Source of the DNA: Gammaproteobacteria bacterium
GTDB taxonomy: Bacteria; Pseudomonadota; Gammaproteobacteria; JBCCGL01
Reading direction: 5' to 3'
Length of the DNA: 64,000 nt
Assembly: GCA_965277715.1 (NCBI GenBank)
Contig: OZ255836.1
Coordinates: 96,001-160,000 of the forward strand
The notes below the pieces were generated by a model. That model was not told where the DNA came from. It saw nothing but the letters and a program-made list of their open reading frames with translations, and ran no database searches. Numbering within the stretch: the first letter of the stretch is position 1; the number at the start of each line of letters is the position of its first letter. The position numbers and the translations under genes were made by a program. Positions 5,334 through 47,202 of this stretch are shown here, piece by piece.

Positions 5334-5389
5334 CGGCGCACCGTGAAATTGCTCGACAGCTTAGCAATGTAAATGTACCATCGTCAACC

Positions 5390-21503: not shown

Positions 21504-21582
21504 CAGGTCAGGCACTTTTATTGTGATTGAGAGTGTGATATCGGCGATCTTGCCGTTGACGCTAAGTGATCCATCAGCAGCA

Positions 21583-29570: not shown

Positions 29571-29733
29571 ATGAATGACAACATCGCGCACCTACCGGAA
29601 TCCAAACAGGACGAGCTAAGACGTATTGCCGAAGTAGTGCGCAAAGAATGCGATAACGTGGAAATGGTTGTTCTATTTGGCTCCTATGCGCGTGGCGACT
29701 GGAAGGACGGCCCGCACGAACAGGGTCGGGGCC
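29571..29733 (+). pseudogene. MNT-HEPN fusion gene, 5' part (split by composite transposon)
   Basis: MNDNIAHLPESKQDEL...VLFGSYARGDW; rejoins 46496 in frame. Confidence 0.9.
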
Positions 29734-31262
29734 CAATACCGCTACCTCAGGTTTAACCCAATGAATCTTTTAGCCTCTGAGAGGCCTTGATACGAGGTTC
29801 AGTTAACAGTGGGTAGGCTTTTGGTCGTCGTTTAATTGCCCTTGGTTGGGGTGATCGTTTTCTCCTGCCAATTAACGTTGAAGCGATTATCCTTAATAAG
29901 GAAGTGTACGCTTTTTGTATCACACTGGATGTTGAGTGGATGAATTTAATATAAGCAATACCCAGTAGCTGTACCGTTGCCTTAAAACTTATTTGACGTG
30001 CTATTTCACCCTCTGTTTTTGCTGACTCTGCCATGCTACCCCGAATCAGGTTATAAGCCATAAAGGTTGTTGCTATTTCTTTTTCAACCATCTCGGGTGA
30101 ATGGCATCGCAACATATCCATTTTCAAATCTGTTTTAATTGTACGAAAATCCAATTCAACTTTCCAACGTTCCTTATACAGTGTTGAAAGCTCTTTCTTA
30201 GGGTAAGTATCAACCTCCAACAAAGTGCTAACATAGACTGTCCCATCCACTGAAAATTCTCGAACTGTCAGTGTTTTCGGCAATAGATCAAAGTCTGATT
30301 GCGACATCCAAACCGGTTTTCTTTTAGGTTTTTCCCACTCGATAAGATGATCTTTTGCACCAAGCGTTAACCCTGTTTTGTAATCCGCTTTCTTTTGTGC
30401 GTGATTCATTGAGACGAATGCAACCCCTTTCGATTGTAGAGCCGCTAAGACAGCATAAGTACAGTAATAGCGGTCTGCCAGTAATAGATCATTGGCGGTT
30501 AATGACGTCATCAGGGTACTGAATAATGACATTTCCCCTGTTCCCTTTCCTTGATACTCTCCCATTGCATAATCAATAATAGCGCCAGAACTTAAAGAAA
30601 TGAGTCCGACTATTCGAGCAATAGGAAAACCTAAACCCGGTTTTTGAGTCTGTTGCTGGGGGTATTTATGTTGATTTTTCTGGGTATCAGGCATGAGAAC
30701 AGTGGTTCCATCCACAAGCACCACATTATACCCTTTCCATGTCCAAATTTTACCTGCTCTGGCATGTAACGTTGAACCGATTGAACGTACCTCCTGAAGT
30801 ACCCACGACAGAGATAAACGTTGGCGGGCTTTACAGTAAGGACCGCTATTAAAAGAACTTGGAAGCAGGTTTTCCTGTAAACGATCAACTAGCAGACGGG
30901 CGACTGTTTCTTTACAACTGCCATTATCACTTAACACCTGCCAGAGAAATAAACGCAGTGTAACAAGTGGGGTGAATACCCGGTCTCGATAGCTGCCCGA
31001 TAGTTCGCTTAGGTCGTTTAGACGCTTGGAACAGAGTAAATTATTAAAGTCTCCTGTGTTTAACTGAAAAAAAACACGTTTGATCGTTTTAATTTGCTGT
31101 CGGATAGTGAATTTCATAGAATAGGTCAGCGTTAGGTTTTTTGGCGAAGTACTTGTGTGTTTTGTCGCTTACAAGGATACTTCAAAAGGAAACCTAACGT
31201 TACCCATCTATATGACTTTTAACGTTATTTTAGTTCTTCACCAGGCTGAGGTAGCGGTATTG
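29734..31262 (-). mobile_element. IS4-family IS, copy 1 (1529 bp)
   Basis: TIRs CAATACCGCTACCTCAG / CTGAGGTAGCGGTATTG. Confidence 0.95.
29753..31117 (-). CDS. IS4-family transposase
   Basis: VDGT, LADRYY, YKERWKVELDFRTIK. Confidence 0.95.
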   Translation of the reverse strand: MKFTIRQQIKTIKRVFFQLNTGDFNNLLCSKRLNDLSELSGSYRDRVFTPLVTLRLFLWQVLSDNGSCKETVARLLVDRLQENLLPSSFNSGPYCKARQRLSLSWVLQEVRSIGSTLHARAGKIWTWKGYNVVLVDGTTVLMPDTQKNQHKYPQQQTQKPGLGFPIARIVGLISLSSGAIIDYAMGEYQGKGTGEMSLFSTLMTSLTANDLLLADRYYCTYAVLAALQSKGVAFVSMNHAQKKADYKTGLTLGAKDHLIEWEKPKRKPVWMSQSDFDLLPKTLTVREFSVDGTVYVSTLLEVDTYPKKELSTLYKERWKVELDFRTIKTDLKMDMLRCHSPEMVEKEIATTFMAYNLIRGSMAESAKTEGEIARQISFKATVQLLGIAYIKFIHSTSSVIQKAYTSLLRIIASTLIGRRKRSPQPRAIKRRPKAYPLLTEPRIKASQRLKDSLG

Positions 31263-31386
31263 GGGTCGGTGACTGTTGCATCTCAACCCCAGCAGTAGCA
31301 TCCAATTTGTTAACTTGCCCTAAACCCTGTGCCAAGTAGGTGGTCTTGGCGTCGTAAATTTCGTTCTGCCCCAACGGTTTCATCAT
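31263..31386 (-). pseudogene. 5' stub of a gene truncated by the IS
   Basis: AGGTG RBS just after the hlyD stop; MMKPLGQNEIYDAKTTYLAQGLGQVNKLDATAGVEMQQSPTP is open up to the IS end. Confidence 0.45.
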
Positions 31387-31396
31387 GAGCACACCT

Positions 31397-32728
31397 TCAG
31401 CGTTCTCTTAATGCAGAAAGTAAGGTTTCTTTGATTGGTGCAATAAAAAAATCGATCAATGATCTTTGGTCTGTAATGATTTCGACTTGTACGCTCATGC
31501 CAATTTGTACTGTTTGTAAACCATCGTATGTATTAAAAGCTTTTTGACTCAAATTAATGTGGGCAAGATAGAATGATTTACTACCATCCTCTGACTGTAT
31601 AGAATCACTACTCAAGTAGACTAGCTTTCCCGGCAAACTTCCATAACGTGTATAGGGGAAAGCGTCCACCTTGATGCGCACTTTCTGATCGGCGCGTAAG
31701 AACCCAACCTCTCCACTGGGAATCCGAACTTTTGCAATAGGGGACTGACTAGTTGGTACGATAGTAAGCAAAGCATCTCCAGCGTTAACATAGATACCCG
31801 TAGCAGCAACAGACAATTTTTCGACGATACCAGATATCGGATTGAGCAATCGGCTGCTATCCAACTGGGCGACAATGCCTCTATGTTGAGCCTGGAGTTT
31901 CTTTTCCTGTAAATCCAATGCCTGCTGTTGCTCAGCAAATTCAAGCTTAAAGCGCCGAAAAACAGTGGGTATTTTCGCGTTCAATGAAACCATACGAACG
32001 TCCAGTAGCTCTTTGCGCTGGCGGTATTCGATACTGGCAAACCGAGCTTTTTGTAACTCAATAGAACTTTTTGTTATTTCTGCCTTACTTACATAATTTT
32101 TTGCCAGTAAAGCCTCGCGTGCGCTGTGGCTTGCCTGAATTAAGGGTTCTATTTCCTTTGCCTGAAGAGCCTGGGTTTTTGCGTAACGCATTTCAGCTAG
32201 GAGTTCAACTCTCTCTCTCTCCATATTGTCAAGTTGGTCTTTAATAGTGGAGAGGCGCTGGATAATCCAAGCACGCTGAAGTGGCTGTACTGATTCATCT
32301 TCCGGTATTTTTCGGTGAATCTCCACCAAATTAAGCTGTTTAAAATCCTCGAACTCAAAACGATTAACAGCACTATACAAAATCAATTGGGATTGGACAC
32401 TCTGTAGTTCTGCCTCTATTTCACGCAATTGCGCACGTAAGCTACGATCATCCATCTGAATCAGTATCTCACCCTGTTTGATCCGTTGGCCATCATGCAC
32501 TGCCAGCTTTGATACTACACCAGACCGGGCGGCACGGAGGGTTTTTACTTTACCACTGGGAATAATATGCCCTTTAGCTGTAGTAATCACATCAATTGAT
32601 GTAAAAATAGCCATCGTAATCGCAACAATCACAGTGATAATCACCGACACTGGCATAATCGAAGAGCCTGGCAGTATCGGTCGTTGTTGCGTCATTAAAT
32701 GCTCAGGATGGAAATTTAGCTTTGGCAT
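31397..32728 (-). CDS. HlyD-family type I secretion membrane fusion protein
   Basis: AKGHIIPSG, coiled coil, KVDAFPYTRYG, GMSVQVEIITDQRSLIDFFIAP, LRER. Confidence 0.95.
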   Translation of the reverse strand: MPKLNFHPEHLMTQQRPILPGSSIMPVSVIITVIVAITMAIFTSIDVITTAKGHIIPSGKVKTLRAARSGVVSKLAVHDGQRIKQGEILIQMDDRSLRAQLREIEAELQSVQSQLILYSAVNRFEFEDFKQLNLVEIHRKIPEDESVQPLQRAWIIQRLSTIKDQLDNMERERVELLAEMRYAKTQALQAKEIEPLIQASHSAREALLAKNYVSKAEITKSSIELQKARFASIEYRQRKELLDVRMVSLNAKIPTVFRRFKLEFAEQQQALDLQEKKLQAQHRGIVAQLDSSRLLNPISGIVEKLSVAATGIYVNAGDALLTIVPTSQSPIAKVRIPSGEVGFLRADQKVRIKVDAFPYTRYGSLPGKLVYLSSDSIQSEDGSKSFYLAHINLSQKAFNTYDGLQTVQIGMSVQVEIITDQRSLIDFFIAPIKETLLSALRER

Positions 32729-32733
32729 AAGTA

Positions 32734-34485
32734 TCAATCTACCATTGCCAAAATACGCGAAGAAACGCCTGTCTGGTATTGACATAAGCGACTATATACC
32801 CCTTCGTGCTTTATCAAATCCAGGTGTTGGCCTTGCTCAACGATTTCCCCCGCTTGCATAACCACAATACGATCACAGAGACGTGCCAGTGACAAACGGT
32901 GAGTTACGATAATAACCGTTTTTTGCCGCCCTAAAGTCTGCAAGTTATCGATCACTTTCGCCTCAGTTTCATAGTCTAGCGCACTACTCGCCTCGTCTAG
33001 TATCAAAAGCGGTGTATCGGCGGCAATAGCACGCGCCAGCGCAATACGCTGTACTTGGCCGCCGGAAAAGTTATGCCCACCTTCCATCACCGGGCTGTAA
33101 TAGCCTTTCGGCAATGTATCAACAAACTGATCAATGCAGGCGATACGTGCAGCCCTGCGCATTACTTCATCATTTGGTGCGTCACAGGCATAGAGAATAT
33201 TACTGGCAATCGTGCCACTGAAGAGTATATTGCGCTGCAACACATAAGAAACTTGTCCACGAACCGATGCGATATCAAGCGTGCGTATTTCATGACCATC
33301 AAGATAGATCCCTCCTTTATACTCATCGTAAGCCAATGATAAAAGTTTTACCAACGTACTTTTACCTGCGCCTGATTCGCCGAGTAGGCACACGCGTTCG
33401 CCGTGGTGAATCTCCATATTAATATTTTTTAACGCCGATGACGAATGTTCAGGATAAGTAAAAGAAAGCTGCCTGAACTCTATAAGACGCTGAAACTTAT
33501 CTGCCATCCGGTAAGAGGTCTGTGTAGCGCTTTGTTCAATCTGGTGTGCAAGCACAGTATTCAAACGTTCGACAGACAGGCGAAAAGCCAGTATCTCCTC
33601 CCAGATGGAAGCGAGCCGGATAAGCGGACTGGTTACCCGGTCTTTCAGCATATTAAAAGCCACCAGCGCGCCAAGCGTGAGGTTCTGTTCCAACACCAGA
33701 GTAGCGCCAACATACAAAACAAATACCTCGGATACCACTCCAATAAACTCCGAGGTACGTTCCGACCACATGCCTACCTGCGCCAACCTGTACGACTTTC
33801 GCAGACGCTTATCCAGTGTTCTGAAAATACCATCCACTCCAGCGGCCGTTTTATTGCTCGCACGAACGGTTTCAATCCCTTGCAAACACTCGATTACCCA
33901 GGATTGATGTTGTACACCGGCTGCAAAATTTTCCTTTTCGCGATGCTTTAGTGTTTTACCGAATAAAAAATACTGACCCGCATGTAAAGGAACGGTTGCC
34001 AATACTATCAGCGACAGTGGCATGCTCAAAGAAAGCATCACCAGTAAAAAAATGAGCATAAAAAGCAAGTCCACAGCCAGTGACAATACCCAGCTACTGA
34101 GTATGCCGCGAATGGCATCCAATTCTGCCGAGCGCGATACGATCTCACCTACTGGCGTGCGATCAAAATATGATTTTTTGAGTTTAAAGAGGTGGCGATA
34201 AAATACACCGGCTGACTCGCTGCCCATGCCGATTCCAACCCATTGAGACACGCGAAACTGCGCCACTTTCAGCAGCTGTGTCAACACTGCCGTAGTCAAC
34301 AGTATTATCAAGATAACGGTTAAAGTCGCATAACCTTCAGACACCAACACACGGTCAATTACCGCCATAAACGACAATGGTGTCGCTAATGACAGAGTAT
34401 TTAGGACAACGCCAATTAGCGCGGTCCAAGCAAGCAACCGGGCATAGCGACGAAATAGACCAGCAAAGAGGCTTTTGGATCCCAC
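32734..34485 (-). CDS. HlyB-like type I secretion ABC transporter lacking the C39 domain
   Basis: TM domain starts at residue ~15; GESGAGKST, FSGGQVQR, ILDEASSALD; 583 aa. Confidence 0.92.
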   Translation of the reverse strand: MGSKSLFAGLFRRYARLLAWTALIGVVLNTLSLATPLSFMAVIDRVLVSEGYATLTVILIILLTTAVLTQLLKVAQFRVSQWVGIGMGSESAGVFYRHLFKLKKSYFDRTPVGEIVSRSAELDAIRGILSSWVLSLAVDLLFMLIFLLVMLSLSMPLSLIVLATVPLHAGQYFLFGKTLKHREKENFAAGVQHQSWVIECLQGIETVRASNKTAAGVDGIFRTLDKRLRKSYRLAQVGMWSERTSEFIGVVSEVFVLYVGATLVLEQNLTLGALVAFNMLKDRVTSPLIRLASIWEEILAFRLSVERLNTVLAHQIEQSATQTSYRMADKFQRLIEFRQLSFTYPEHSSSALKNINMEIHHGERVCLLGESGAGKSTLVKLLSLAYDEYKGGIYLDGHEIRTLDIASVRGQVSYVLQRNILFSGTIASNILYACDAPNDEVMRRAARIACIDQFVDTLPKGYYSPVMEGGHNFSGGQVQRIALARAIAADTPLLILDEASSALDYETEAKVIDNLQTLGRQKTVIIVTHRLSLARLCDRIVVMQAGEIVEQGQHLDLIKHEGVYSRLCQYQTGVSSRILAMVD

Positions 34486-34508
34486 TTAGCAAGCAACCGT
34501 CGGTAGAA

Positions 34509-37277
34509 TTAAGGCAACCATATAAAGCGCGACTGCGCACTCCGCTTGCCCACCAGAACCTGGAGCACACGTTGTAATGCATCGGGAGCAGGTGCCACTG
34601 TTCTGGCTGCTATGTTAAATATATAGCGAGGTGTAAATCCGGTTATTGTCGTTGAGGCTACTTCTTGCGCAACTATAGCCGGATTTTTATAAAGCCTCTT
34701 CAACCTGTTGAGTTGATTTTTTTTCCATTGTGCTAACTGCGTTGGTTCTGGGGTTGTTTTCGCTAATTTCCTCAATAAGATGTCGATAGTATCAATGATC
34801 TCGTCGACATTTCCTGGGTCGCAGGCAAAGCGGATTATCAGTGTATAAACATCCTGCTCCGATGCAGCACCATCTATAGTAGTGTTAATGGCGTACACAA
34901 GGCTTCGTTGCTCGCGTATCTCAGTTAATAGCACACCCTGAAGCCAGAGCCTGATAAAATCCATTTTATCTGAATTCATATCAGGCAAGGCTGGCTTTTC
35001 GATCTCATAGCGTAACATGACACTGGCTTCTTTTTGTCCGCTACCACTCACCCGGATATCTGCATTATTTTTCGGTCGCGGAAAAAAGCGAACGCTGTCT
35101 TTTTCAATCATGTTGGTAACAACTGGCAATGTTGCGAGACTCCGCAAAACTGCTGGTCGGAGGGTTGGCTCCAGAATATCGCCGACGATGGCTATACGAT
35201 AATTTTGCGCACCCTTGAAATAACGTTGATAAACAGTGCTCACAGCTTGCATATCAATCGAGTTTAGCTCGTCTAGTGTCATCACACGCAAGGCCGCATC
35301 GCGGTTGAAAAGTTCAACTCCCAGTGCATCCTGCCAAGGCTTGGCTGGATTTCGTAGAAACCGCTCAAGGTCGGCACGGTTTTTCGCTTTGTAGTGTCGC
35401 CACGCAGTTGAATCGATCCGCGCTTCGGTTAGAGCGATATGTAGTAGCCGTAGGAGTGTATCGATATCTTCGCTTTTGCCGCTGCCGTTAATACCCCGGT
35501 TAAAGTAGGCAAAGTAAGGCTGTAACCCGGCATTATGATTGTTTAGCCAGTCATTGAATTCGGCCGCGTTTTTATCACGTAAACCACTGGCAGCAATGGT
35601 ATCCAACGCCAACCTCGCGTGCAGGGTTTGAGCTTCTGACAATCGATTCAGCCCACCTGCACCCGCTAGGCTGTAGTGCACTCTGCCGGGGGACCCACCG
35701 CTATATTGGTGCCATACGACAATACCATTACTCAAAGTCCACTCGGTCACCCCTCCAGGCAGTACACGCGTACCAACAATACTACCCTTCACAGCCGGAG
35801 AAATAGACCAGTCTTCGCTCGCTTGTATGGGCACCTGCGCAGCGGAAAATCGGGTTTTATCGACGCTTAGCCACCGTTCAACATGCGCCTGCTCTGTCGG
35901 ATCGGGCCTATCGGCGTGTACCAACAGGACGTGTGGATGACTATCCATAACCTGTGAGACTGCGTTATCGATATCCTCAATCCGCACATTTGCCAATTGT
36001 TCTTCTATTAGCGAGTACCATTGTCTGGCACGAACGATGGGGACACCATAGAGAAAGTTGTGCATGGCGGCGTCGGCCAGGCTGTGCGCGGAATCCCATT
36101 TCACGCGTTGCTCCGCCAAGTAAGCAGTCCGCCAATTATCCAGTTCGATCTGTGTAATGCCTTGCGACAATAGTTGCGCTCGCTCTTCCGCTAGAATGCG
36201 TGTTGCGGTTTCAAAATTTCCCGACGACAATATCGCCTTGAGCGAAACACGCAGCACCTCTGGCGATTCTTGCCGCCACTGGGTATAAAAGTTGCCCACC
36301 GCGCCCTCGGTCGCCTGCAATCGATGATTCAGGCGTCGTCTGAGTATCTTTAAGCCTGCCTGCCAAAGCGCAGCCCTGTAGAGTTTGTCGTGCGTTGTAG
36401 GTCGTGCCATGCGACTAAAGTGATCGAATGATACAGACTCCTCATGCGTGTGTTTATCATTGATAATGAGTGTTTCCGGAAGAGTGTCGATATTGATATT
36501 GTATACTCCAGGGCTGCCGGATAGCTGGGGTGCCCAGTCGGAGAATTTTTCTTTTATCATCTCGATTATTTTGGAAGTGCTGGAAATATCGCCTGTTACG
36601 ATTATTGCGGCATTGTCGGGGCGATACCAACGCTGGTAGTAAGCCCGTAGTGTGCTTGGCTTGGCCGATTCGATACTTTCTAGGGTACCGATGGGATAGC
36701 GCTCAGCGTAGCGACTGTTGCGGTACAGTGCCTGCCAGCGTGCATCATTATCTTCTCGTAAGCGCCACTCCTCACGCACAATCGGTATCTCGCTGGCAAG
36801 CACGTCGGGGGGGAAGCGGATATACCTTGCCCATTGAGTCAACAGATCAATTGCGAAGGCTATATCGCTGTCAGTCGGATCTTCAAGCCTCAGCCAGTAG
36901 GTTGTATGGTCAAAATAAGTGGCGGCATTACTGTGCTGGATAAACGAGATGCCCCGTTTTTTCAACTGTTCGAACAACTGTTGATTAGGGTAATCACGAG
37001 TTGAGTTAAATGCCATATGCTCAACGATATGAGCATGGCCTTGTTGCTCATCCGTTTCGTGTAATGAACCAGATTTTATTACAAGACGAGCTTCCACTAC
37101 TCTAACACTAGCACTTGAATATTTGTTTTTTAAGACTGTAATCGTCATTTTATTGCGAAGAACTCCGGAGTAATCTCCGGCGAACGCCTCTTTGTTTGCT
37201 TTAAATAATGCGAAGGAAAAGATCGTTAGGATGAAAAGTAAAAAAGTAAAAAATTTGATATTTATTTTTAGTTTCAT
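34509..37277 (-). CDS. M16 (PqqL/pitrilysin-like) zinc protease, exported
   Basis: Signal/TM N-terminus; GHAHIVEHMAF (HxxEH), NAATYFDHT, EEWR, RYPIG, YQRWYRPDN, IREQRSLVY. Confidence 0.92.
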   Translation of the reverse strand: MKLKINIKFFTFLLFILTIFSFALFKANKEAFAGDYSGVLRNKMTITVLKNKYSSASVRVVEARLVIKSGSLHETDEQQGHAHIVEHMAFNSTRDYPNQQLFEQLKKRGISFIQHSNAATYFDHTTYWLRLEDPTDSDIAFAIDLLTQWARYIRFPPDVLASEIPIVREEWRLREDNDARWQALYRNSRYAERYPIGTLESIESAKPSTLRAYYQRWYRPDNAAIIVTGDISSTSKIIEMIKEKFSDWAPQLSGSPGVYNINIDTLPETLIINDKHTHEESVSFDHFSRMARPTTHDKLYRAALWQAGLKILRRRLNHRLQATEGAVGNFYTQWRQESPEVLRVSLKAILSSGNFETATRILAEERAQLLSQGITQIELDNWRTAYLAEQRVKWDSAHSLADAAMHNFLYGVPIVRARQWYSLIEEQLANVRIEDIDNAVSQVMDSHPHVLLVHADRPDPTEQAHVERWLSVDKTRFSAAQVPIQASEDWSISPAVKGSIVGTRVLPGGVTEWTLSNGIVVWHQYSGGSPGRVHYSLAGAGGLNRLSEAQTLHARLALDTIAASGLRDKNAAEFNDWLNNHNAGLQPYFAYFNRGINGSGKSEDIDTLLRLLHIALTEARIDSTAWRHYKAKNRADLERFLRNPAKPWQDALGVELFNRDAALRVMTLDELNSIDMQAVSTVYQRYFKGAQNYRIAIVGDILEPTLRPAVLRSLATLPVVTNMIEKDSVRFFPRPKNNADIRVSGSGQKEASVMLRYEIEKPALPDMNSDKMDFIRLWLQGVLLTEIREQRSLVYAINTTIDGAASEQDVYTLIIRFACDPGNVDEIIDTIDILLRKLAKTTPEPTQLAQWKKNQLNRLKRLYKNPAIVAQEVASTTITGFTPRYIFNIAARTVAPAPDALQRVLQVLVGKRSAQSRFIWLP

Positions 37278-37340
37278 GCGACAATTTACTGTATTTTTTA
37301 ATGAAAAACCAATTGTTTAAAAATTAAAATTATTTCCTGA

Positions 37341-38582
37341 TCATCGAATAAAAACAATATTAGGTATCTCCTCTGTCCTGGATATAGCCCTGATTAATTC
37401 GCGGCATGAGTCTTCCTTTGAGCAGTCATATCTGTTGCTGATAAATATTGTAATCATGTCAGAAGTTGAAAAATATGCAGACATTATAACTTGCGAAGCC
37501 AAGTAAGCCTGAGCAAAAATCCGAGGCGGCAACTTGGAAAGGTTGGAACGATCTACAGCGCTTGAGCTAACCTCAAAACCACCTAAGTCGGATTGAATAT
37601 CAGAAATCCAGTTGTTAATCGAATTTAATAAGTCGTTGTTGGAGGATTTCTGCTGTTCCGTATCGATAATATTTGCAAAATGCAAAGATGTGTTTTTTAA
37701 ATCTTTTTTCAATATTTCGATAATTTTTAATCTGTGTCGCTGCGCTCCATCCCAGATAAGGTAATTTCTAGCATCAATCTCTTGTTGTTTGTCCTGAATC
37801 TCTATTGAATTAAATTTCAATTTTTGACGGCAAGCAAGACAGACTGACTGATAATAATCAGCCTCCGAAGGTGAAAACCATTTCAACTGTTTAAAGCCAG
37901 CGGCACATAATCTCTGAGACAGTTCCGCAGGTGTGATAGCTCGCCGTTTCATGGAGATAATTTTCGCGGGTGCCATGGACTTGTCTGGAACCACGAAATA
38001 ACTGCAATCGTGTATTGGAGATCTCGGTGAGCCTTGCCAAATTCGTCTTTGAAAATACAGTATGTTGCCTTTTTCACGACTAACTGGAGCAACATTTGAT
38101 AGGGCAATATCCGGCTCCTCAATCATTAGTTTTCCATAGTCATATATTCCAATAACAGCTATGCCATCTGGTTTTAAACAGTTAAATATCTTTTCTATAC
38201 AGGTTTCCAACTCTGTATCTTCAAGAAAATGAGTGATAAAACTTGAGAGAACAAAAGCAATATCATATTTCTCTTTAAATTCTCTTTCTAAAAAATCTGT
38301 GCACTCTAACTGGATATTTAGATTCTGTTTTTTTGCAAGCTGTCTCGCTACTGCCAAACTCTTTTTACTAAAATCGATCCCTGTGACTTTATGGCCCATC
38401 TGTGCAAGGGCAACGGTGACCTGCCCCGTTCCACATCCAACTTCTAAAATTCGTTGCCCGGCAGGTAAATCTGAGAATATACGAAAGTACAATCTATGTA
38501 CCTCATCAATACCTCCATTTTCTTGGCGGTGCATTAAGTCGTAGTCCTCTGACCAGTCATCATATATATTTTTATACGACAT
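37341..38582 (-). CDS. Class I SAM methyltransferase with C-terminal degenerate QueC-like domain
   Basis: ILEVGCGTG, GIDFS, LKPDG; C-terminal ~150 aa aligns by eye with ORF 39608-40270. Confidence 0.85.
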   Translation of the reverse strand: MSYKNIYDDWSEDYDLMHRQENGGIDEVHRLYFRIFSDLPAGQRILEVGCGTGQVTVALAQMGHKVTGIDFSKKSLAVARQLAKKQNLNIQLECTDFLEREFKEKYDIAFVLSSFITHFLEDTELETCIEKIFNCLKPDGIAVIGIYDYGKLMIEEPDIALSNVAPVSREKGNILYFQRRIWQGSPRSPIHDCSYFVVPDKSMAPAKIISMKRRAITPAELSQRLCAAGFKQLKWFSPSEADYYQSVCLACRQKLKFNSIEIQDKQQEIDARNYLIWDGAQRHRLKIIEILKKDLKNTSLHFANIIDTEQQKSSNNDLLNSINNWISDIQSDLGGFEVSSSAVDRSNLSKLPPRIFAQAYLASQVIMSAYFSTSDMITIFISNRYDCSKEDSCRELIRAISRTEEIPNIVFIR

Positions 38583-39027
38583 GTCGTTTTGTCCCAAAGA
38601 TAGTGTCCCATAGACGAAAATACAGATCATAGTTTACTGAACAGTCCTGATGATGAATAAGGTGGTAGCGCCCCATCGCAAGTCCAGGTATGTTAATTCG
38701 TGGGTTATGATCAACGATGCCTTCGGCAAGAATGAAACCATCAATGTAATATAATACAGCAATCGGCCACGCCTGTGGCCACACCACCATTATGGCTAGT
38801 AAAGGTAAAATTTCAGTTATCCACTGATCTGTGGTAGCTTTCCAATCACCAAACCACCCAATAAGATTAAGCCAACTGAACTCACAGTCACCGGCATAAT
38901 TTACCACATGATGGCTTTTGTGAAACTTCCACAGAAAACTAAAACTGTGTGCTGCTCTATGCGTCCAGTAAATGATAAATGTAAAGAGAAAAAAACAGAT
39001 CGTTAAATTCAAAATGTATGAAATCAT
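38572..39027 (-). CDS. Fatty acid hydroxylase/sterol desaturase family protein
   Basis: His boxes YWTHRAAH, FHKSHH, DHN, YHLIHH; NY...WDTIFGT. Confidence 0.88.
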   Translation of the reverse strand: MISYILNLTICFFLFTFIIYWTHRAAHSFSFLWKFHKSHHVVNYAGDCEFSWLNLIGWFGDWKATTDQWITEILPLLAIMVVWPQAWPIAVLYYIDGFILAEGIVDHNPRINIPGLAMGRYHLIHHQDCSVNYDLYFRLWDTIFGTKRHVV

Positions 39028-39036
39028 AGTAGTATA

Positions 39037-39621
39037 TCAACCCCACTTACACCAAGTATCAGTAAAAACCACTTCGCAGCTATGGTGCCTGGTTAAAATA
39101 TTTCCGCGATTGAAATCCAAAGCATAATTGTAATTTCTAGCGCGTTCTCCCAGTGAGGTAGCGATATTTTTAAGTTCGGAATTTGAAGGAGGGTAATATT
39201 TAGGCCGGTCATCCAGTGATGCGTAGGCATAATTGATCGCCAAGTTTGTCTCTCCCCAAAAGGAACCATCTTTAGGTGCTGGAAATAAGCGTTCCATAAT
39301 AGTCATTGCCGAGATCCCATCATCATGATGGCTTAGGATGTTGGGAAGATATTTGCAATTGTTTTTTTTGGCAAAATCTACAAATCTAGTAAAAGCCTCA
39401 CAGCTTATGCCTATTCGGACTACCGTTCTTTCATCTAATCTGTCGAAAACAATAGCATCGTCCCCTCTACCAATTTCAGAAAAAGATTGCTTGTATATAT
39501 CTTCCAGCTGTGAGGCAGCAACAAGCCAAGCTGGATGTAGTGAAGTCTTCTGTGTTGCCTCGTCGTTAGGTAGTAGCCTGGTGGTGTTATCACAAGTAGA
39601 AATTAGTTTACTGGAGTGCAT
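39037..39621 (-). CDS. Minimal protein-kinase-like fold protein
   Basis: IGRGDDAIVF Gly-loop, IMERL hinge, LDFNRGNIL catalytic loop, VFTD. Confidence 0.65.
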   Translation of the reverse strand: MHSSKLISTCDNTTRLLPNDEATQKTSLHPAWLVAASQLEDIYKQSFSEIGRGDDAIVFDRLDERTVVRIGISCEAFTRFVDFAKKNNCKYLPNILSHHDDGISAMTIMERLFPAPKDGSFWGETNLAINYAYASLDDRPKYYPPSNSELKNIATSLGERARNYNYALDFNRGNILTRHHSCEVVFTDTWCKWG

Positions 39622-40270
39622 CTTTTATCCTTTCATTATGAGAGACAGAACTTAAAGTGATACATTCAGGACATCTCTGGCAACTAGAGAATGTATCTAC
39701 TTCATCATCATAGGAAGGGTTTCTGCAACTTGCAGTAAATTTAAAGATATCATCTGGCAAATAATTCACCTCTTCCTGTTTTGTTGGGGGATAAGGCCAC
39801 AAAAAACACTGTGGATGATCTTCGTTCCCCCAGATCAACCTTAAAATACGCACTGTGTAAGCGCGAAGAAACTGATAAATCTCGCTACCAGGATTCCAAC
39901 TCTTGTCTTCATCACTGTTCATGCTCAATAAAATGCGATCTTTACGGCAGAAAGAATGTGAAAGCGCTGAGTGTGCAGAAAAAAACATGGCGGTGGAGGT
40001 GTCTCTCGCAAAGTTCCTGAAACTTGTTAAGTTCACACTACTGCTGTCAAAGTGAAACTCCCTATATCTACTTAATAAGATAGGATGCATAAAGGAAATT
40101 GCCCGATCTTCGTAGGGTGCTGTATATGTCTTTTTCTTTCCGGTATCATCCAAAGCATATCGACTAATGTGGTGAGCATAAACATCGTCGTTAGTTTCGC
40201 GGAGAAGGCGAACCAATCCATAAGTACTGTCCAGTCCACCGCTCCACATTACAAGCGTTTTACGTTTCAT
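39608..40270 (-). CDS. QueC-like PP-loop ATP pyrophosphatase
   Basis: VMWSGGLDST PP-loop; C-terminal SC...CQRCPEC Zn site. Confidence 0.8.
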   Translation of the reverse strand: MKRKTLVMWSGGLDSTYGLVRLLRETNDDVYAHHISRYALDDTGKKKTYTAPYEDRAISFMHPILLSRYREFHFDSSSVNLTSFRNFARDTSTAMFFSAHSALSHSFCRKDRILLSMNSDEDKSWNPGSEIYQFLRAYTVRILRLIWGNEDHPQCFLWPYPPTKQEEVNYLPDDIFKFTASCRNPSYDDEVDTFSSCQRCPECITLSSVSHNERIKDALQ

Positions 40271-40452
40271 TTCCTGAGCTCCTCATTTATACAACTCGAT
40301 TAGGTTAAATAGCACTTGACATAGCTTTTCTGCCACGATTTGTGAAAACACAATCGAAAAGTATGCGTGAGACTAATTTGACTTGCTTTTTACCCTAGCA
40401 TATTCGTCTATATAGTGATGTTTTTACAGTAATTAAGTATTGCGATGAAGCA

Positions 40453-40647
40453 TCAGCGTGTGCTAAGCCAATTGCTCAGAGGGTTAATTATCATATAAAA
40501 TACAACCAAATAAATGAGAAAAAATGTAACTAACTCCACATAGGACAAGCTTTTTTCTGACATGAAAAGGACCAAAATAAAATAAATAACCGTAGAAATA
40601 ATCGTACTAAGAAGTGACATATATATATTTTTTCTTTTGATAAACAT
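40453..40647 (-). CDS. Small 2-TM membrane protein, candidate immunity protein
   Basis: GGAG RBS; 64 aa, two hydrophobic helices; follows the precursor. Confidence 0.6.
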   Translation of the reverse strand: MFIKRKNIYMSLLSTIISTVIYFILVLFMSEKSLSYVELVTFFLIYLVVFYMIINPLSNWLSTR

Positions 40648-40951
40648 TTTGATTCTCCAATTTTCATTTGGCTTTAATTATAGATGCGGAATAATCATTA
40701 AATTTAATTTTATGCAACTATTTTACACCTGAAAGCCAGGTTAACTAAAAACTAAAAATATTTAGTAACATAGCTATAAATAATGTCTTGCTTATATTTA
40801 TATTACTTAGTTTTCCGTATTATAAACTAGTAAAAAATTTCTGCATAACTAGAGACACTAACAAGAGTTTAAGGGTTAACCTATTCATTTTCAGGCGAAC
40901 GATTAGCTGTCTATTCACTAATATCCTGTTCTTGAAAAAAATTATCGCAAA

Positions 40952-40971
40952 GGGCATCTAAATTGATGCCC
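40952..40971 (-). terminator. Stem-loop after precursor gene
   Basis: GGGCATC-N6-GATGCCC followed by T-rich sequence on the minus strand. Confidence 0.5.
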
Positions 40972-41025
40972 ATTACCAGAAATACCCAAACTTAGTGCTT
41001 AAAAAAACGCCTCATTAATCCGCCA

Positions 41026-41364
41026 TTATTGACCCCCGCCACCATAACCGTTGCCGTTACGACCAGCACCGGCATAGCCGCGGGGATTACTAAGGCCAGA
41101 GGGATCACCAAAACAATTATCTGATCCGAGAGCGCCGACTACACCACCGCTCACCCCGCCAGCCACCGCGCCTGATAAAGCACCAGGTCCGCACCCGACG
41201 CCACCAGCAAGCGAACCTGCGGCACAGCCACCGGCTGCACCACCAATGGCTCCCTGCGCAGCAGCTGTTCCAATGTCACCGGCGCAGCTTCCACCACCTC
41301 CACCGCCCCCACCAAAACTGGTGGGTTCAAAAAGATCATCAAAACGAACATTTTCTAATTTCAT
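41026..41364 (-). CDS. Gly-rich bacteriocin/microcin-like RiPP precursor
   Basis: GAGGAG RBS; leader-like MKLENVRFDDLFEPTSFGG; poly-Gly; GxxxG-rich hydrophobic core; 4 Cys; Gly/Asn/Tyr tail. Confidence 0.85.
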   Translation of the reverse strand: MKLENVRFDDLFEPTSFGGGGGGGGSCAGDIGTAAAQGAIGGAAGGCAAGSLAGGVGCGPGALSGAVAGGVSGGVVGALGSDNCFGDPSGLSNPRGYAGAGRNGNGYGGGGQ

Positions 41365-41519
41365 TTACTCTACTCCTCAAAAATTACGAAGTGATTTGTA
41401 ATGCACCTCATTTAACTGGCCGAGAACAACCCGACCACCTTATTGAGTGTGATGGAAAAAACCACACTCAGCAATTGTCAACATTGCTGACAACTACATT
41501 CCTTACACTGAAGATATAT

Positions 41520-42656
41520 TTAATATCTCCAGAAATAACTGACCGACATGTTATGACTGTCAAGCGCATGCGCCTGATAAAACCAGCCAACGGGTTGAAT
41601 AAATAAATCACCAGGGTTCAGTATTATCGATAAGCATTTACTAGATTTCGACAATGGAAACAGTTGATAATCAGGTATCTCAGGTTTAAACCAACACGTC
41701 TGATAACTGTTATATCCCAGCATAGGGTAGAGCAGTTCTGATTGATCAGCTGAATATAAATCCAGTCGTTTACGCCCAATTACCTGACCCAGAAATTTGT
41801 GAAAGGGGTTGCGATGTAGATCTGATACTAGTAGGCGTGTCGGTATTATCCCCAACGATAACTTTGGAGGAGTGAAATCACCGTGATCAAAGTACGGTGG
41901 CCCAAAATCGGCAAACATTTCCACAGGCAAATTGACATTTTCGACATAAAGTTTCGAGAAAACATTGACCGCAACCTTCCGGGAGCTAGGTTTCAAACTC
42001 TTAAGCTCTTTGGCGAGTTCCCGAATAGTCTGCTGCGAAAACGTTGTGTGGAAGGGAATAACAACATCAGCATAGCGCTCAACTAAACATTCAAACGTCC
42101 AGTTCCTATATGGAACAATATTTTGTATTCCGTGAACTATCGTTGGCATACCTGCTTCCATCTGCTCTAGCACTTGCATTTGCGTTGGGCTTTCCAAATT
42201 AGTGGGCTGTTCAAGCTTTGCGTACCCCTTCAACATGTGTGTTTTTTCCGCACAACGCAGTCGCCTTTGCGTCTGTATCGACGGTCTCAAACAGGCTTTT
42301 GATAAATGTTTGACGAGATTAAGATCCCCCGAGAACTCCACTGCACCAACAATATCAGGCGCACACCAGTCAAAATACTCGCATTCATCAACAATTTGCC
42401 TGAGTGTTGTGATCGGCATACCAATCTCGGCTGCCACAGGAATACCCTGCTCCAGTTTCGACATAATACGCAGATGCTGCTGGTCAAATATGGCGAAAAA
42501 AGTGCTCTCAGGATATTCAAATATCCGAAACTGAACTGCCCCTCGTATACCGTAAGGGTTTTCAAAACCCTCCTGCAATAATTGGGCAAAAAGTGATATA
42601 GCTTCAACATTTGACTGCTGCACTTGTTCATGAGATAGATGACTCATGCATGACAC
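41520..42656 (-). CDS. SCP2-like plus JmjC/cupin domain protein
   Basis: VEFSGDLNL (SCP2-like); LHRNP...QVIGRKR..LY, LNPGDLFIQPVGWF...MSVSYFW (JmjC). Confidence 0.8.
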   Translation of the reverse strand: MSCMSHLSHEQVQQSNVEAISLFAQLLQEGFENPYGIRGAVQFRIFEYPESTFFAIFDQQHLRIMSKLEQGIPVAAEIGMPITTLRQIVDECEYFDWCAPDIVGAVEFSGDLNLVKHLSKACLRPSIQTQRRLRCAEKTHMLKGYAKLEQPTNLESPTQMQVLEQMEAGMPTIVHGIQNIVPYRNWTFECLVERYADVVIPFHTTFSQQTIRELAKELKSLKPSSRKVAVNVFSKLYVENVNLPVEMFADFGPPYFDHGDFTPPKLSLGIIPTRLLVSDLHRNPFHKFLGQVIGRKRLDLYSADQSELLYPMLGYNSYQTCWFKPEIPDYQLFPLSKSSKCLSIILNPGDLFIQPVGWFYQAHALDSHNMSVSYFWRY

Positions 42657-43093
42657 TCGCGGGAAAATGTACGAACTTTACTGCCTGTCCAGCGATTGAC
42701 CTTGCGCACTGAACCGTCTGAATTTCGGCGTAGGCTACTTGCAACCTGATTGGGGAATACGTTATTAGTCATGTCGCGTACGATGTCCTTGATGTTGCCG
42801 TGAGGCGTGATCCAGTCGTTAAAAAACAGCCTGTCACCACACTGCCATTCGCCACTGCAGAGTGAACGGCCCGTGATACAAATCGCTTGCTCAATACTGG
42901 TTGATAGCCACGCCCAGGTGACCATAGCGGTTGGCAAACCATCGCCATTTAAATAGATTCGTGCCTGATTAACGTTAAGCGCAGGCAATATTTCGGTGCG
43001 CATATACTTCCCTAGTTGAAATCGGCTGTGGTAACTGGATTGCGCCAGCAATTCGAGGGCATAGGCGGTGCTAGTGTAGTAGTCGAGGATCAC
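42644..43093 (-). CDS. HlyC/RtxC-family toxin-activating acyltransferase
   Basis: SSYH, ILPAL..NQ, VTWAWL, EWQCGDRLFFNDWITPHG, FP....SLRR. Confidence 0.9.
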   Translation of the reverse strand: MILDYYTSTAYALELLAQSSYHSRFQLGKYMRTEILPALNVNQARIYLNGDGLPTAMVTWAWLSTSIEQAICITGRSLCSGEWQCGDRLFFNDWITPHGNIKDIVRDMTNNVFPNQVASSLRRNSDGSVRKVNRWTGSKVRTFSRECHA

Positions 43094-44250
43094 CAGATCA
43101 CCTGCTTTCTTTGTCCACCATGCCGATCAACAAACATTGCCGACACGACCTTGTTACCAAACTGTTTACGCAGTGATTTAAGCAAACTTAAATGATCACC
43201 GAATGGTGCCGATAGTTTTGTTACATATAATCTATCCTGCGGATATCCACCAACTTCCCAAGCTATATAGCCGACAGGTTTACCTTTGTCAAAATGGATA
43301 AAAATCCTATTTTCGAATAGTTTTTCGCGAGCACTCAAGTAGTATTCATATATGGTCTTTTCTGGCTCTCCATGTGCATAATCCGTATCCAGCAGCAACA
43401 TTGCACCCAAACGTCGATAAATTTCACAAGTAGATATATCACCCACTGATTGTAGGGGGAAGTCCGGCAAATAATTTTCCCGATTACAACTGATTGATGC
43501 ATAGGGAATTATATTGCCCAAAAGTTCACTTAAGGCTTGCCCCGTGTATAGAGACCAAAGACTGGCAGCGTTACATTCTCTGTTCAGAACAATCGCGGCA
43601 ACACGTGCTAAGGGATAGTTCCAACGATATAAGTAAGTTTTGCCCGCCGATTTTAGTGCACTACGCAAACATTGTGCATCATCCAACAGATAAGCCCTAT
43701 TATCCCTCTCCCAGACAATACACATACTAGCATATAGTGCAGGCTGGTCATTTTTGACATAATCCATTAGTGCCTGTTCACCAATAAATGCACAAATTTC
43801 ACGATCAACTGGTGAAGCTACTGCAATTGGAGACACAATAGACTGTACTGCATGCGAAAATTCATGCGCCAGATTGAGTAGATCTCTTGCACTACCTCGA
43901 TAAGGGCAATAAATACGGGGGCGAGAAGTATCCGAATGATCAGTAAAAGGCTGCTTTATCACAGTAGCCTCACAACCGTATTCAACCAATGTCGAAGATT
44001 GCACATTTTGAATAGCTGCCGATTGATGTGGAAACCGTGCCGCAAGCGTAGTTGCCACAAAATCCAAAGCATCCGGCATGCGAATATTGGTAAGCTGAGC
44101 TGTGTTTTGAGTACTATAGTTTTCTTTTTCCTGCTCTTGAACGAGGCTCGCTGCTTCCGCTAGAAGATCCACACAATCTAGAACACTCAAACCCGTAAGC
44201 GACAACCAATCCTCAAGTGTAAATCGCTTTCCGTTATTTTCATCATTCAT
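43090..44250 (-). CDS. Minimal M3/gluzincin-like metallopeptidase fused to a divergent HlyC-like domain
   Basis: PRIYCPYRGSARDLLNLAHEFSHAVQ...REICAFIGE; C-terminal GKPVGYIAW...LSAPFGD...LRKQF. Confidence 0.75.
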   Translation of the reverse strand: MNDENNGKRFTLEDWLSLTGLSVLDCVDLLAEAASLVQEQEKENYSTQNTAQLTNIRMPDALDFVATTLAARFPHQSAAIQNVQSSTLVEYGCEATVIKQPFTDHSDTSRPRIYCPYRGSARDLLNLAHEFSHAVQSIVSPIAVASPVDREICAFIGEQALMDYVKNDQPALYASMCIVWERDNRAYLLDDAQCLRSALKSAGKTYLYRWNYPLARVAAIVLNRECNAASLWSLYTGQALSELLGNIIPYASISCNRENYLPDFPLQSVGDISTCEIYRRLGAMLLLDTDYAHGEPEKTIYEYYLSAREKLFENRIFIHFDKGKPVGYIAWEVGGYPQDRLYVTKLSAPFGDHLSLLKSLRKQFGNKVVSAMFVDRHGGQRKQVIW

Positions 44251-44589
44251 AGCAATCCTAACTTCACTAAAATTCCAAATAAACCTTCCCCAAAATATTA
44301 GATTCGTTAATCGATTTTGTCAACAGTCAGTTTTGTTTAATAGCAATTTTCACAGAAAAATAAATTTAAATAATTGATTTTATGAGATAATTTTTTAACG
44401 CAACAACAAAATCAACAGTTTATACGATCATGGCGTGTCAAAAAAACAGCTTGACGGTTTTAGCCTATCTTTGACAATTTATGCCTTATTTATTCACATT
44501 ACTATGCATGCTAGTTGGTTCCTGTGGGTTAAAGGGTGCTTGTGCTGGCAACAAATAACCTACCATAGAACCAGCTTTTTTTGTAATTA

Positions 44590-44623
44590 CTTCAAATGCT
44601 TACAGCATAAGGAAGTGCCATTC
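44590..44623 (-). repeat. Orphan MITE/IS end
   Basis: Reverse complement of the first 34 bp of the MITE at 44736, with 1 mismatch. Confidence 0.75.
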
Positions 44624-44735
44624 GAGTATGAGATCATGATTACAAATCACTAGGAAATAATGAGGTAATTATTCCTTGCAGATCATATAAAATACCACTG
44701 CTGTCCCGTTAAGAGGAAATAAAGAGATCTGAATA

Positions 44736-44944
44736 GAATGGCACTTCCTTATGCTGTAAGTATTTGAAAGTATTGGTATTATGTGCTTGGTTCAGATAAC
44801 TTGGCATATGGTTCTTGAAAGCAATATTTGTAAAACTATCCCGGTTATCATTGGCGGCAACTTTCAAAATATCATTTTTGTTTCTTAGAAAAAATAAATA
44901 AACTCTTTACTATCAGTTGCTTACGCCTTAAGGAAGTGCCATTC
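44736..44944. mobile_element. 209-bp MITE with IS4-like TIRs
   Basis: 16-bp TIR GAATGGCACTTCCTTA / TAAGGAAGTGCCATTC; flanks AGATCTGAATA / AGGTCTGAATA (11 bp, 1 mismatch). Confidence 0.8.
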
Positions 44945-44955
44945 AGGTCTGAATA

Positions 44956-46484: not shown

Positions 46485-46495
46485 GGGTCGGGGCC

Positions 46496-47202
46496 GAATG
46501 CTTATTCATAAAAAAAGTGACTACGATATTCTTGCTATTACCCGCAACGAGTACATCGCCAAAGATGTCACGCTTTGGCACAAGATCAAAGATGAATGCA
46601 CCAAGCTGAACGTCAGCGCCTATGTTCGCATTCTCGCCCGTGATATTGAGTTTATTAATTACAAGCTTCATCAGGGACAGTACTTTTTTACCGAGATCAT
46701 ACAACAGGGTATCGCGCTTTATGACAGTGGAAATGTAGAGCTGGATGAAAAGCGACCGCTTGACCCTGCTGAAGAAAAGCGGATCATTCAAGCGGATTTG
46801 GATGAGGCTTTTTCAGCCGCTAAAGAATTTTATGAAGGCTGCGAATGGAATATGACAAAAGAGTACTTCAAGAGAGCTGCTTTCAATCTTCATCAGGCGT
46901 GTGAACATGCCTACAAAACTATTCTGCTGATTTTTGCAGGAGAAAGCCCACAAGAACACCATCTGAATGTTTTGGGCGATATGGCGGCAGACTACTGCCC
47001 AGATTTAGTTGGTGTAATACCCCGTGAAACCCCCGAACAAAAAGCGCTGTTTGAATTGTTGGACTATGCGTATATTGGTGCTCGTTATGATCGGAGTTAT
47101 AAAATTACCCAAGAGCAGTTGGCAGTTTTGATTCCCTGTGTGAAAAAACTGCATGAAGTGGTCGAGAAATGTAGTAGTGAGCGTATGGCGGGTTTTTGTT
47201 GA
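46496..47202 (+). pseudogene. MNT-HEPN fusion gene, 3' part
   Basis: KSDYDIL...GQYFFTEI...AAFNLHQACE...EHHL...AYIGARY. Confidence 0.9.

Follow-up and report, generated by a model that had tools for sequence, protein, structure and literature searches.

A putative IS4-bounded mobile cluster for a small, type I exported and enzymatically tailored glycine-rich peptide in a gammaproteobacterium

We analyzed a 64,000-nt stretch of gammaproteobacterial DNA (the window) that carries, at positions 31397-44250, a cluster of 12 open reading frames (ORFs; g01-g12, Table 1) built around a glycine-rich peptide gene, g04. With moderate confidence, we interpret the locus as a mobile cluster, bounded by two IS4-family insertion sequence (IS) copies, for a bacteriocin-like small peptide that is exported by a type I system and post-translationally tailored. 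All 12 ORFs lie on the minus strand and are separated by short gaps or overlap. This is the arrangement described in an initial annotation, made by a model from the letters, which placed 12 co-oriented genes around a 112-aa Gly-rich ORF. The same annotation stated that no RTX toxin gene is present in the window, and none is found: the RTX repeat (PF00353) matches 0 of 57 scanned ORFs, and the motif GGxGxDxUx is absent from all six frames.

The candidate precursor g04 is divided into a leader (residues 1-17, ending DDLFEPTSF and followed by GGGGGGGG; leader sequence ...FDDLFEPTSFGGGGGGGG), a poly-Gly run (residues 18-25), a glycine-zipper core (residues 26-80, approximately), and a polar tail (residues 81-112) that ends in GGGGQ. 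The GxxxG motifs of the core begin at residues 38-73 and flank Pro60, and 87% of residues 26-80 are G, A, V, I, L, or S. The S[FY]GGGG leader is common to g04 and nine other distinct peptides (10/10), the cores of which are unalike. The consensus of the leader family is x5-9-DDLF-x3-S-F/Y-GGGG..., followed by hypervariable cores, and a profile built from three leaders retrieves six more leader-bearing peptides from metagenomes. As judged from the sequence, g04 represents a leader-dependent precursor family with conserved enzyme neighbors, the gene pattern of peptides that are synthesized ribosomally and modified post-translationally (RiPPs). A Lys is located 4-7 residues upstream of DDLF in all eight peptides compared; among the ten distinct leaders, it is present in eight, counting K3 of the G731 precursor, and absent from the G388 and G486 precursors. 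In an exhaustive search, the core of g04 (residues 25-90) gives 19 weak phmmer matches (E 2e-7 to 8e-4). The 13 relatives retrieved from these 19 are all glycine-zipper peptides, several with double-Gly leaders and some with Sec signals, and they match Bacteriocin_IIc and Gly-zipper profiles below threshold only. Complex prediction of g03 with precursor residues 1-45 gives a score of 0.01 and a mark of 0.32, which speaks neither for nor against a contact.

Module A, made up of g01-g03, the precursor, a small transmembrane ORF, M16, a C39-less ABC gene, and HlyD, has counterparts in three genomes from the Roseobacter sinensis family (R. sinensis contig C11, G731, and G486). In these and in the window, the precursor ORF directly follows the conserved trio g01-g02-g03, and the proteins of this trio are 26-60% identical across the four genomes (58-60% between g02 and the HlyC proteins of the three homologous clusters). 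In C11, homologs of g01 (31%), HlyC (59%), and g03 (43%) precede a 94-aa ORF with the leader ...SDDLFGAASFGGGGGGG, which matches the window leader given above. The order in G731 is g01, HlyC (60%), g03 (42.5%), a 111-aa precursor (leader, 19 Gly, and glycine-zipper core), an ORF with three transmembrane (TM) segments, two M16-like genes, a C39-less ABC gene, and HlyD; the split M16-like pair occupies the same cluster position as g10. The order in G486 is an Asp/Arg hydroxylase, g01, HlyC (58%), a degenerate g03-like gene, a 99-aa precursor, DUF2927, ABC, and HlyD. A C39-less ABC gene and HlyD are found after the precursor in three of the four genomes, G731 and G486 included, and M16 is also present in two. 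G635 contains remnants only. Matches to g03 occur in 2 of 401 genomes in a class-level sample, which contributed G388, and in 4 of 401 in a family-level sample. From the gene order, the window cluster appears to be a type A cluster with module B (g06-g09) inserted between the putative immunity ORF g05 and the M16 gene g10.

The recurrence of module A bears on the possibility that the product is an unmodified Cdz-like or class II-like glycine-zipper bacteriocin with its immunity gene and exporter, and that the enzyme genes are IS-assembled passengers in a mosaic island. According to the part of the Cdz report that is available (PMC5380434), Cdz bacteriocins need only an exporter, the peptides, and immunity. 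G388 comes close to such a minimal set: its truncated g03 continues in frame into a leader, another precursor is present together with small TM ORFs, ABC, and HlyD, and no match to g01, g02, or module B is found within 20 kb. The window is also rich in IS elements, and deletion variants of the cluster exist. However, the trio directly precedes the leader ORF in all four genomes at the identities given above, and such divergence in combination with a constant gene order indicates that the enzyme genes are not hitch-hiking. In addition, the frames of g01 and g02 overlap, as do those of g02 and g03, the leader is not of the double-Gly/C39 type, and the ABC exporter is without C39. We consider passenger enzymes unlikely.

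In the G388 fusion (locus L035, 12343-12945), the truncated g03 runs into the leader as ...GWFHQVHALD followed directly by DLFGAVSFGGGGGGGG..., and the last strand of g03, ALDSxxMSVSY, aligns in the same columns as the leader segment DDLFGAVSF. The fusion could be a scar left by recombination, or else it may hint at mimicry.

Among the module A enzymes, g02 is the clearest. Called an HlyC acyltransferase at the outset, it matches ApxC (PDB 4WHN) at E 1e-15, with ssyHsrf aligned to spLHrkw and ffnDWitPhG to wfiDWiaPfG. The His and Asp kept in this alignment are presumably the catalytic residues, as their roles in the ApxC literature suggest. HlyC enzymes, also termed TAATs, acylate internal Lys residues of an RTX protoxin and use acyl-acyl carrier protein (acyl-ACP) as the donor. 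No substrate of this classic kind is seen here, as the window has no RTX protein and K2 is the only Lys of g04.

The reading of g01 as a fusion of an M3 peptidase and HlyC holds in part. Its C-terminus (residues 339-384) matches Pfam HlyC with 31.4 bits (cut-off 25), over profile positions 78-124 only, and the HExxH...E residues H129, E130, H133, E151, and E158 are invariant in five of five family members. The M3 signals are weak: TIGR02290 is matched at E 3e-4 over 33 residues, the nearest Atlas cluster (score 0.97) is named M3A/M3B, and the best Foldseek match of the model (pLDDT 58.7, with an unreliable C-terminal half) is an M3 peptidase at E 2.9e-3. By sequence, g01 gives nothing meaningful against the PDB. 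The family is rare, with three matches in 5.8 billion proteins.

For g03, a JmjC/Cupin_8 domain is present as annotated, and its best PDB match is JMJD5 (E 2e-17). The other half of the proposed SCP2-JmjC architecture is not confirmed: a Pfam profile search of the N-terminus gives no SCP2 match at E<=0.01. The suggestion that lipid-handling genes (SCP2 and the hydroxylase) point to a tailored acyl chain is thus not supported in its SCP2 part. The JmjC domain of the window lacks two metal ligands. It reads lHrN and wfYqaH at the positions of lHqD and ywHyv in JMJD5, that is, HxN...Y in place of the metal triad HxD...H, which is intact in the g03 homologs of R. sinensis, G731, and G388. A search of plasmids with g03 gives one match, in the Rhizobium leguminosarum plasmid NZ_CP071629.1 (244438-245505; L036). 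This homolog is full-length, 29% identical, annotated as cupin-like, and flanked by an AMP-binding protein on one side and a non-ribosomal peptide synthetase on the other, so the g03 architecture is also used in non-ribosomal peptide pathways. The Rhizobium cluster was set aside as a system different from that of the window.

Module B begins with g06, described initially as a QueC-like PP-loop ATPase. The SGGLDS motif and a C-terminal Cys cluster are present. The likeness to QueC itself is weak: the best PDB profile matches are nitrile synthetase 9lei at E 1.4e-3 and QueC at E 0.07-0.13, and no Pfam family, QueC (PF06508) included, is matched at E<=0.01. With 37 proteins at E<=1e-3 among 5.8 billion, g06 forms a small family, and a search of plasmids gives no match. 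The kinase-like character proposed for g07 is borne out by its fold. Profile searches assign no family to g07, and Foldseek returns 200 PDB matches at E<=1e-3 with probability 1.0, though with TM-scores of only 0.33-0.43; the 50 listed of these 200 are all protein kinases or aminoglycoside phosphotransferases. One Atlas neighbor cluster is 23% Phage_T7_kinase. Profile matches agree with the calls for g08 (hydroxylase with three His boxes), g09 (methyltransferase), g10 (M16), g11 (ABC), and g12 (HlyD). At its C-terminus, g09 carries a degenerate copy of g06. The relationship is evident in Kiloniella, where the C-terminal halves of the g09 homologs match g06 (tblastn E 1e-17 to 1e-22); for the window genes, it does not reach significance.

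A scan with g06, one genome per species, gives ten loci (L001-L010). The order g06-g07-g08-g09 is syntenic in five of them (L001-L005), from Roseobacter sinensis, Albidovulum (a 2.5-kb contig), Kiloniella, Ca. Spongiihabitans (L004, with a frame-broken methyltransferase), and Dongia. In Kiloniella, module B has a C39-type ABC gene with HlyD on one side and, on the other, an RTX/Hint protein of 1540 aa or more. The Dongia module comes immediately after an RTX protein that is 3232 aa or longer. No small precursor is found beside module B in either genome, and neither genome gives an HlyC match. In the more distant L009 and L010, the PP-loop gene alone adjoins RTX giants, and in L009 it adjoins HlyC. 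In R. sinensis L001, a Gly-rich ORF, a 58-aa two-TM ORF, and an HlyC gene are located directly upstream of module B. The Gly-rich ORF ends in GGGQ like g04, and its likely start is the ATG at 3520 behind AAGGAG; the HlyC is only 28% identical to g02. A metagenome scan with the g06 profile gives 17 loci, most shorter than 6 kb, and none of the 17 has g07-g09, HlyC, or a Gly-rich ORF.

The contexts of g06 include two further features. L009 carries, at 4020-5644, a methyltransferase and a nicotianamine-synthase-like gene divergent from the PP-loop gene; the locus further contains HlyD, another PP-loop gene, HlyC, and a giant RTX/Hint protein. Gammaproteobacterial g06 homologs (L006-L008 and L011-L020; about 257 aa, 37-45% identity) lie in an ispF-truD ... 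Smr/Ser-Thr-kinase neighborhood, in which no RTX or tailoring genes are found nearby. They are a housekeeping-like PP-loop protein and say nothing on the window cluster.

These contexts raise the possibility that the enzymes, module B at least, act on another substrate, either a large RTX protein encoded elsewhere or an envelope lipid whose remodeling would serve self-protection or the secretion machinery. In accordance with such a role, module B or the lone PP-loop gene adjoins RTX giants in 4 of the 10 loci (L003, L005, L009, and L010). Gene g08 belongs to a lipid-hydroxylase family, with the ornithine-lipid hydroxylase OlsE as its best NCBIfam match (E 3e-7 over 36 residues), and the absence of RTX genes covers the 64-kb window, so that such a gene may lie elsewhere in the genome. 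On the other hand, both module B loci with no RTX neighbor, the window and L001, have a GGGQ-ending Gly-rich ORF and a small TM ORF before module B. None of the eight other leader-family peptides with a visible C-terminus ends in GGGQ, and each occurrence of module A comes with a precursor of its own. A separate substrate therefore seems somewhat unlikely to us, and we prefer to view module B as a second, separately inherited tailoring set that serves glycine-rich type I secretion substrates and that may act here on the C-terminal ...GGGQ tail of g04.

The initial annotation proposed that RTX machinery has been repurposed for a small peptide, and it named a lack of co-occurrence of the genes elsewhere as a point against. 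HlyC, the HlyB/HlyD-type exporter with a leader precursor, and the conservation of the trio in three further genomes support the proposal in part, and module A recurs elsewhere with its precursor. Module B departs from it, as it occurs separately, beside RTX giants and with no precursor (Kiloniella and Dongia). Homologous loci with an RTX toxin and without the small precursor were named beforehand as the pattern that would contradict the proposal; because of the Kiloniella and Dongia loci, this pattern is present in part, for the module B half of the cluster.

The downstream genes provide a protease and a type I exporter. The M16 protease g10 has an N-terminal signal or anchor (a hydrophobic segment at residues 2-28). 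The ABC exporter g11 has intact Walker A and signature motifs and lacks an N-terminal C39 or C39-like domain, as no PF03412 match is found; it thus differs from the C39-containing ABC exporters of class II microcins. Because g10 ends 23 nt before g11, there is no room upstream for a C39 domain. C39 is missing from all four ABC exporters of the leader-family clusters, which implies that a separate peptidase is needed if the leader is removed. The HlyD-family protein g12 has one TM segment (residues 36-70). The ORF g05, correctly described as a two-TM protein, has comparable small TM ORFs after the precursors in L001, G388, and G731, and may serve in immunity.

The cluster is flanked by a direct repeat of two IS4 copies (1536 nt, 99.35% identity), one on each side, with terminal inverted repeats that start with CAATACCGCTACC. 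The initial annotation names neither these flanks nor the division of the cluster into two modules. In sequencing runs X3, X5, and X7 (three of four runs), contigs join position 29722 to 46485, with 11 letters fitting either side. These contigs lack the IS4-cluster-IS4 unit of 16,762 nt (window 29723-46495) and keep one copy of GGGTCGGGGCC, indicating that filled and empty sites coexist in nature. The two IS copies, the outer target duplication, and the empty site define an IS-bounded composite transposon. The identity of the two IS4 copies suggests a recent arrival of the cluster. The G+C content is 0.40-0.48 within the unit and 0.55-0.60 at the window ends. The runs that carry the locus include sponge metagenomes.

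Deletion forms are also found (window 31486-44608). In X5 and X7, contigs join 39306 to 44608 (5301 nt), so that g01-g06 and part of g07 are gone. In X3, a replacement from 37329 to 44361 leaves only M16-ABC-HlyD, and X5 contigs have internal ABC/HlyD deletions of 353 and 1174 nt. Together with the loss of two metal ligands in window g03 and the related remnants in G388, G635, and Spongiihabitans L004 (frame-broken methyltransferase), these forms could mean that in this strain the locus is a remnant in decay and no longer yields a product. In contrast, all 12 frames are open, and the HlyC His/Asp, HExxH, SGGLDS, His-box, HxxEH, and Walker A motifs are intact. Ribosome-binding sites are present, and the near-identity of the IS4 copies again speaks for a recent arrival rather than decay. 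A remnant is, in our view, very unlikely. A sigma-70-like promoter match is located upstream of g01 (Table 1); overall, the promoter scan shows no enrichment over shuffles.

Under the interpretation that we favor, a tailored and exported peptide, processing would proceed as follows. The leader would dock the precursor on the g01-g03 enzymes, and the peptidase domain of g01 would cut at the invariant junction between S-F and GGGG. HlyC, perhaps paired with the TAAT-like half-domain of g01, would move a fatty acyl chain from acyl-ACP to the newly exposed N-terminal Gly or, alternatively, to the leader Lys upstream of DDLF. The second option is given less weight as the main mechanism, since Lys is absent from the G486 precursor. 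On the GGGQ tail, module B would act by ATP-dependent carboxylate or amide activation, phosphorylation, hydroxylation, and methylation. The exporter g11/g12, together with a TolC encoded elsewhere, would export the product, the glycine-zipper core would attack target membranes in the manner of Cdz and class II bacteriocins, and g05 would protect the producer.

Several points weigh against this interpretation. The lipidation of g04, like every processing and export step, is predicted from sequence. The core of g04 contains no Lys, and the G486 precursor contains none at all although its cluster has HlyC. To our knowledge, Lys is the only acceptor of TAAT enzymes, and we know of no precedent for N-terminal acylation by a TAAT. 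In the TAAT-like half of g01, the Asp is not conserved, the peptidase assignment of g01 comes from weak matches and a low-confidence model, and g03 of the window may be inactive, as it has HxN...Y for HxD...H. The active site of g10 may face the periplasm, given the signal or anchor. The precursor g04 gives no Pfam or NCBIfam match even at E<=1. BLASTP finds no significant similarity between the Gly-rich ORFs of the window and L001, the equivalence of which is drawn from composition, the GGGQ ending, and gene order only, and none among g05 and its small TM counterparts. Module B also neighbors RTX giants where the genome gives no HlyC match, and g04 need not be its substrate. Finally, the deletion variants in sponge metagenome contigs indicate that the cluster is dispensable and decaying in some populations.

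A bolder reading, which we put forward tentatively and regard as doubtful, is that two undescribed modification systems meet here. In the first, which would be a new RiPP-like class, the TAAT, the peptidase fusion, and the JmjC-like protein would cut between S-F and GGGG and lipidate the N-terminal Gly; in the second, module B would be a general tailoring set for glycine-rich type I secretion substrates. If so, the action of module B on giant RTX proteins would be the first RTX modification beyond HlyC acylation. If HlyC acylates these peptides, the range of TAATs would reach beyond large RTX toxins and take in bacteriocins of a RiPP-like kind, and the leader with its poly-Gly run would be a compact, genetically encoded, ACP-dependent lipidation tag for lipopeptide engineering, which has so far relied on GNAT enzymes. 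That module B is repeatedly linked to RTX giants makes a second post-translational modification of type I substrates directly testable. The cluster is mobile, and it is found in sponge-associated communities, from which bioactive peptides have classically been obtained.

The window has a mosaic make-up, with transposase genes of IS4, ISL3, and other types. The 7-nt sequence GGGTCGG also follows the right inverted repeat of the inner IS4 copy. A third IS4 copy, truncated and inverted, is present, and further repeats of 98% identity are shared by the regions at 22 kb and at 55-60 kb. At 44591-44952, a short repeat with the core TAAGGAAGTGCCATTC is present in three copies, two of which form a 51-nt inverted pair. 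Contig depth in the runs is very high over this stretch, which contains the deletion joint 44608 and looks like a miniature inverted-repeat transposable element. Two HEPN-domain ORFs are located in the low-GC island, at 9944-10840 (with a nucleotidyltransferase domain) and 46498-47202, and close by lie a BrnA/CopG-type antitoxin (13866-14246), a fragment of Fic/DOC (17026-17391), and an ORF with DUF6602 (47224-47943). These ORFs look like toxin-antitoxin or defense-like cargo. A reading as an anti-phage defense system was rejected, as PADLOC gave only generic methyltransferase and ATPase matches.

Table 1 Positions of the cluster genes and associated features in the window.
Feature	Position	Strand	Observation
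Target-site duplication, left copy	29723..29733	.	11 nt, GGGTCGGGGCC
IS4-family element, copy 1	29734..31269	-	Transposase 29753-31117; NF033592 IS4 transposase match, E 1e-63
g12, type I membrane-fusion protein, HlyD family	31397..32785	-	TIGR01843, 246 bits vs cut-off 209; Pfam HlyD_3
g11, type I secretion ABC exporter, HlyB-type	32734..34485	-	TIGR01846 HlyB only from profile position 128; ABC_membrane from residue 26
g10, fused M16 (pitrilysin-like) metalloprotease	34509..37277	-	Peptidase_M16 and M16_C; HIVEH at residue 83
g09, S-adenosylmethionine class I methyltransferase with degenerate PP-loop-like C-terminal domain	37341..38630	-	Methyltransf_25, E 8e-22; EVGCGTG
g08, small membrane di-iron hydroxylase, FA_hydroxylase family	38572..39027	-	PF04116, E 3e-15; HRAAH, HKSHH, HLIHH; hydrophobic segments
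g07, minimal protein-kinase-fold protein	39037..39621	-	AlphaFold model, pLDDT 81
g06, QueC-like PP-loop ATPase	39608..40270	-	SGGLDS at residue 10; Cys182/197/200/203
g05, two-TM ORF, putative immunity	40453..40647	-	64 aa; two hydrophobic segments; GGAG ribosome-binding site
g04, putative precursor	41026..41364	-	112 aa, 39 Gly; GGAG ribosome-binding site 8 nt upstream
g03, JmjC/Cupin_8-like C-terminal domain, N-terminal domain without assignment	41520..42656	-	Cupin_8, E 2e-18
g02, HlyC/TAAT-family acyltransferase	42644..43093	-	PF02794, E 1e-25, 90.5 bits vs cut-off 25
g01, HExxH (M3-like) peptidase domain with half TAAT-like domain	43090..44250	-	HEFSH motif; partial PF02794 match
Best sigma-70-like promoter match	44295..44323	-	Upstream of g01; TTGACA-17-TAATAT, 10/12 matches
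IS4-family element, copy 2	44956..46491	-	Transposase 44975-46339; last 7 aligned nt overlap right target duplication
Target-site duplication, right copy	46485-46495		11-mer GGGTCGGGGCC, outside outer end of IS4 copy 2
Extra repeat/IS stretches	58209-59561, 21581-23077, 55624-55963, 59641-60515		

The initial annotation knew of no RiPP class with this enzyme set. In literature searches, mostly outside subscription journals, we found no HlyC/TAAT or QueC-like enzyme tied to small-peptide, RiPP, or bacteriocin clusters, and no PP-loop enzyme linked to RTX or type I secretion systems. To this extent the set is undescribed for small peptides; the core of the peptide, by contrast, resembles Cdz-like and class II-like glycine-zipper bacteriocins.

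Class II microcins and double-Gly bacteriocins of the colicin V type have a double-Gly leader that is cleaved by the C39 domain of the exporter. The cluster shares with them a Gly/Ala-rich, membrane-active core, an adjacent immunity gene, and export by an ABC and a membrane-fusion protein. It differs in that no C39 domain is present and that the leader does not fit the double-Gly consensus, as judged by eye. RTX operons (hlyCABD) are similar in that an HlyC/TAAT with His/Asp, an HlyB-type ABC exporter, and HlyD form one co-oriented cluster. Unlike hlyCABD, the window has no substrate with RTX repeats; a 112-aa peptide whose core is free of Lys is the presumed substrate, g11 is without the N-terminal C39-like domain of HlyB, and HlyC is joined by the peptidase/TAAT-like fusion and the JmjC-like protein.

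The closest comparison for the peptide itself is Cdz of Caulobacter (cdzABCDI), which likewise has a dedicated type I ABC exporter and adaptor, a TolC encoded elsewhere, and a small multi-TM immunity gene, as far as the available part of the source goes (PMC5380434). The criteria stated there for Cdz-like peptides are 60-151 residues, a predicted leader that ends in G[G/A/S], one or two GxxxG zippers flanked and not interrupted by Pro or charged residues, and a short polar C-terminus (PMC5380434). The predicted g04 peptide fits this description in its length, Gly-ending leader, zippers around Pro, and polar tail, with a type I exporter and a TM ORF nearby. No curated bacteriocin model is matched significantly by the window peptide, which gives only weak matches to unnamed glycine-zipper peptides. 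In the sections of the Cdz report at hand, the peptides are described as unmodified, with no tailoring genes required, and as a two-peptide pair (PMC5380434), whereas the window has one peptide, linked to eight enzyme genes. The window leader, DDLF...S[FY]GGGG and an extended poly-Gly run, also belongs to a separate family.

Lipidated RiPPs (selidamides, lipolanthines, goadvionins, lipoavitides, and aphotorhaptins) are, in the accessible text of two reports, leader-guided ribosomal peptides that are fatty-acylated (PMC8784127, PMC13647313), as is presumably the window peptide. Several are acylated at the N-terminus after leader removal, in the manner proposed for g04, and the acyltransferases described in these texts are GNAT enzymes (PF00583; PMC8784127, PMC13647313); in the accessible text of one, RTX toxins are mentioned only as an analogy (PMC8784127). 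The window differs in its PF02794 TAAT, its leader, and its type I exporter without C39. Finally, g06 shares with QueC, QatC, and nitrile synthetase 9lei the SGGxDS PP-loop and the C-terminal Cys cluster, but it is linked to a kinase, a hydroxylase, a methyltransferase, and type I substrates rather than to queuosine or defense genes.

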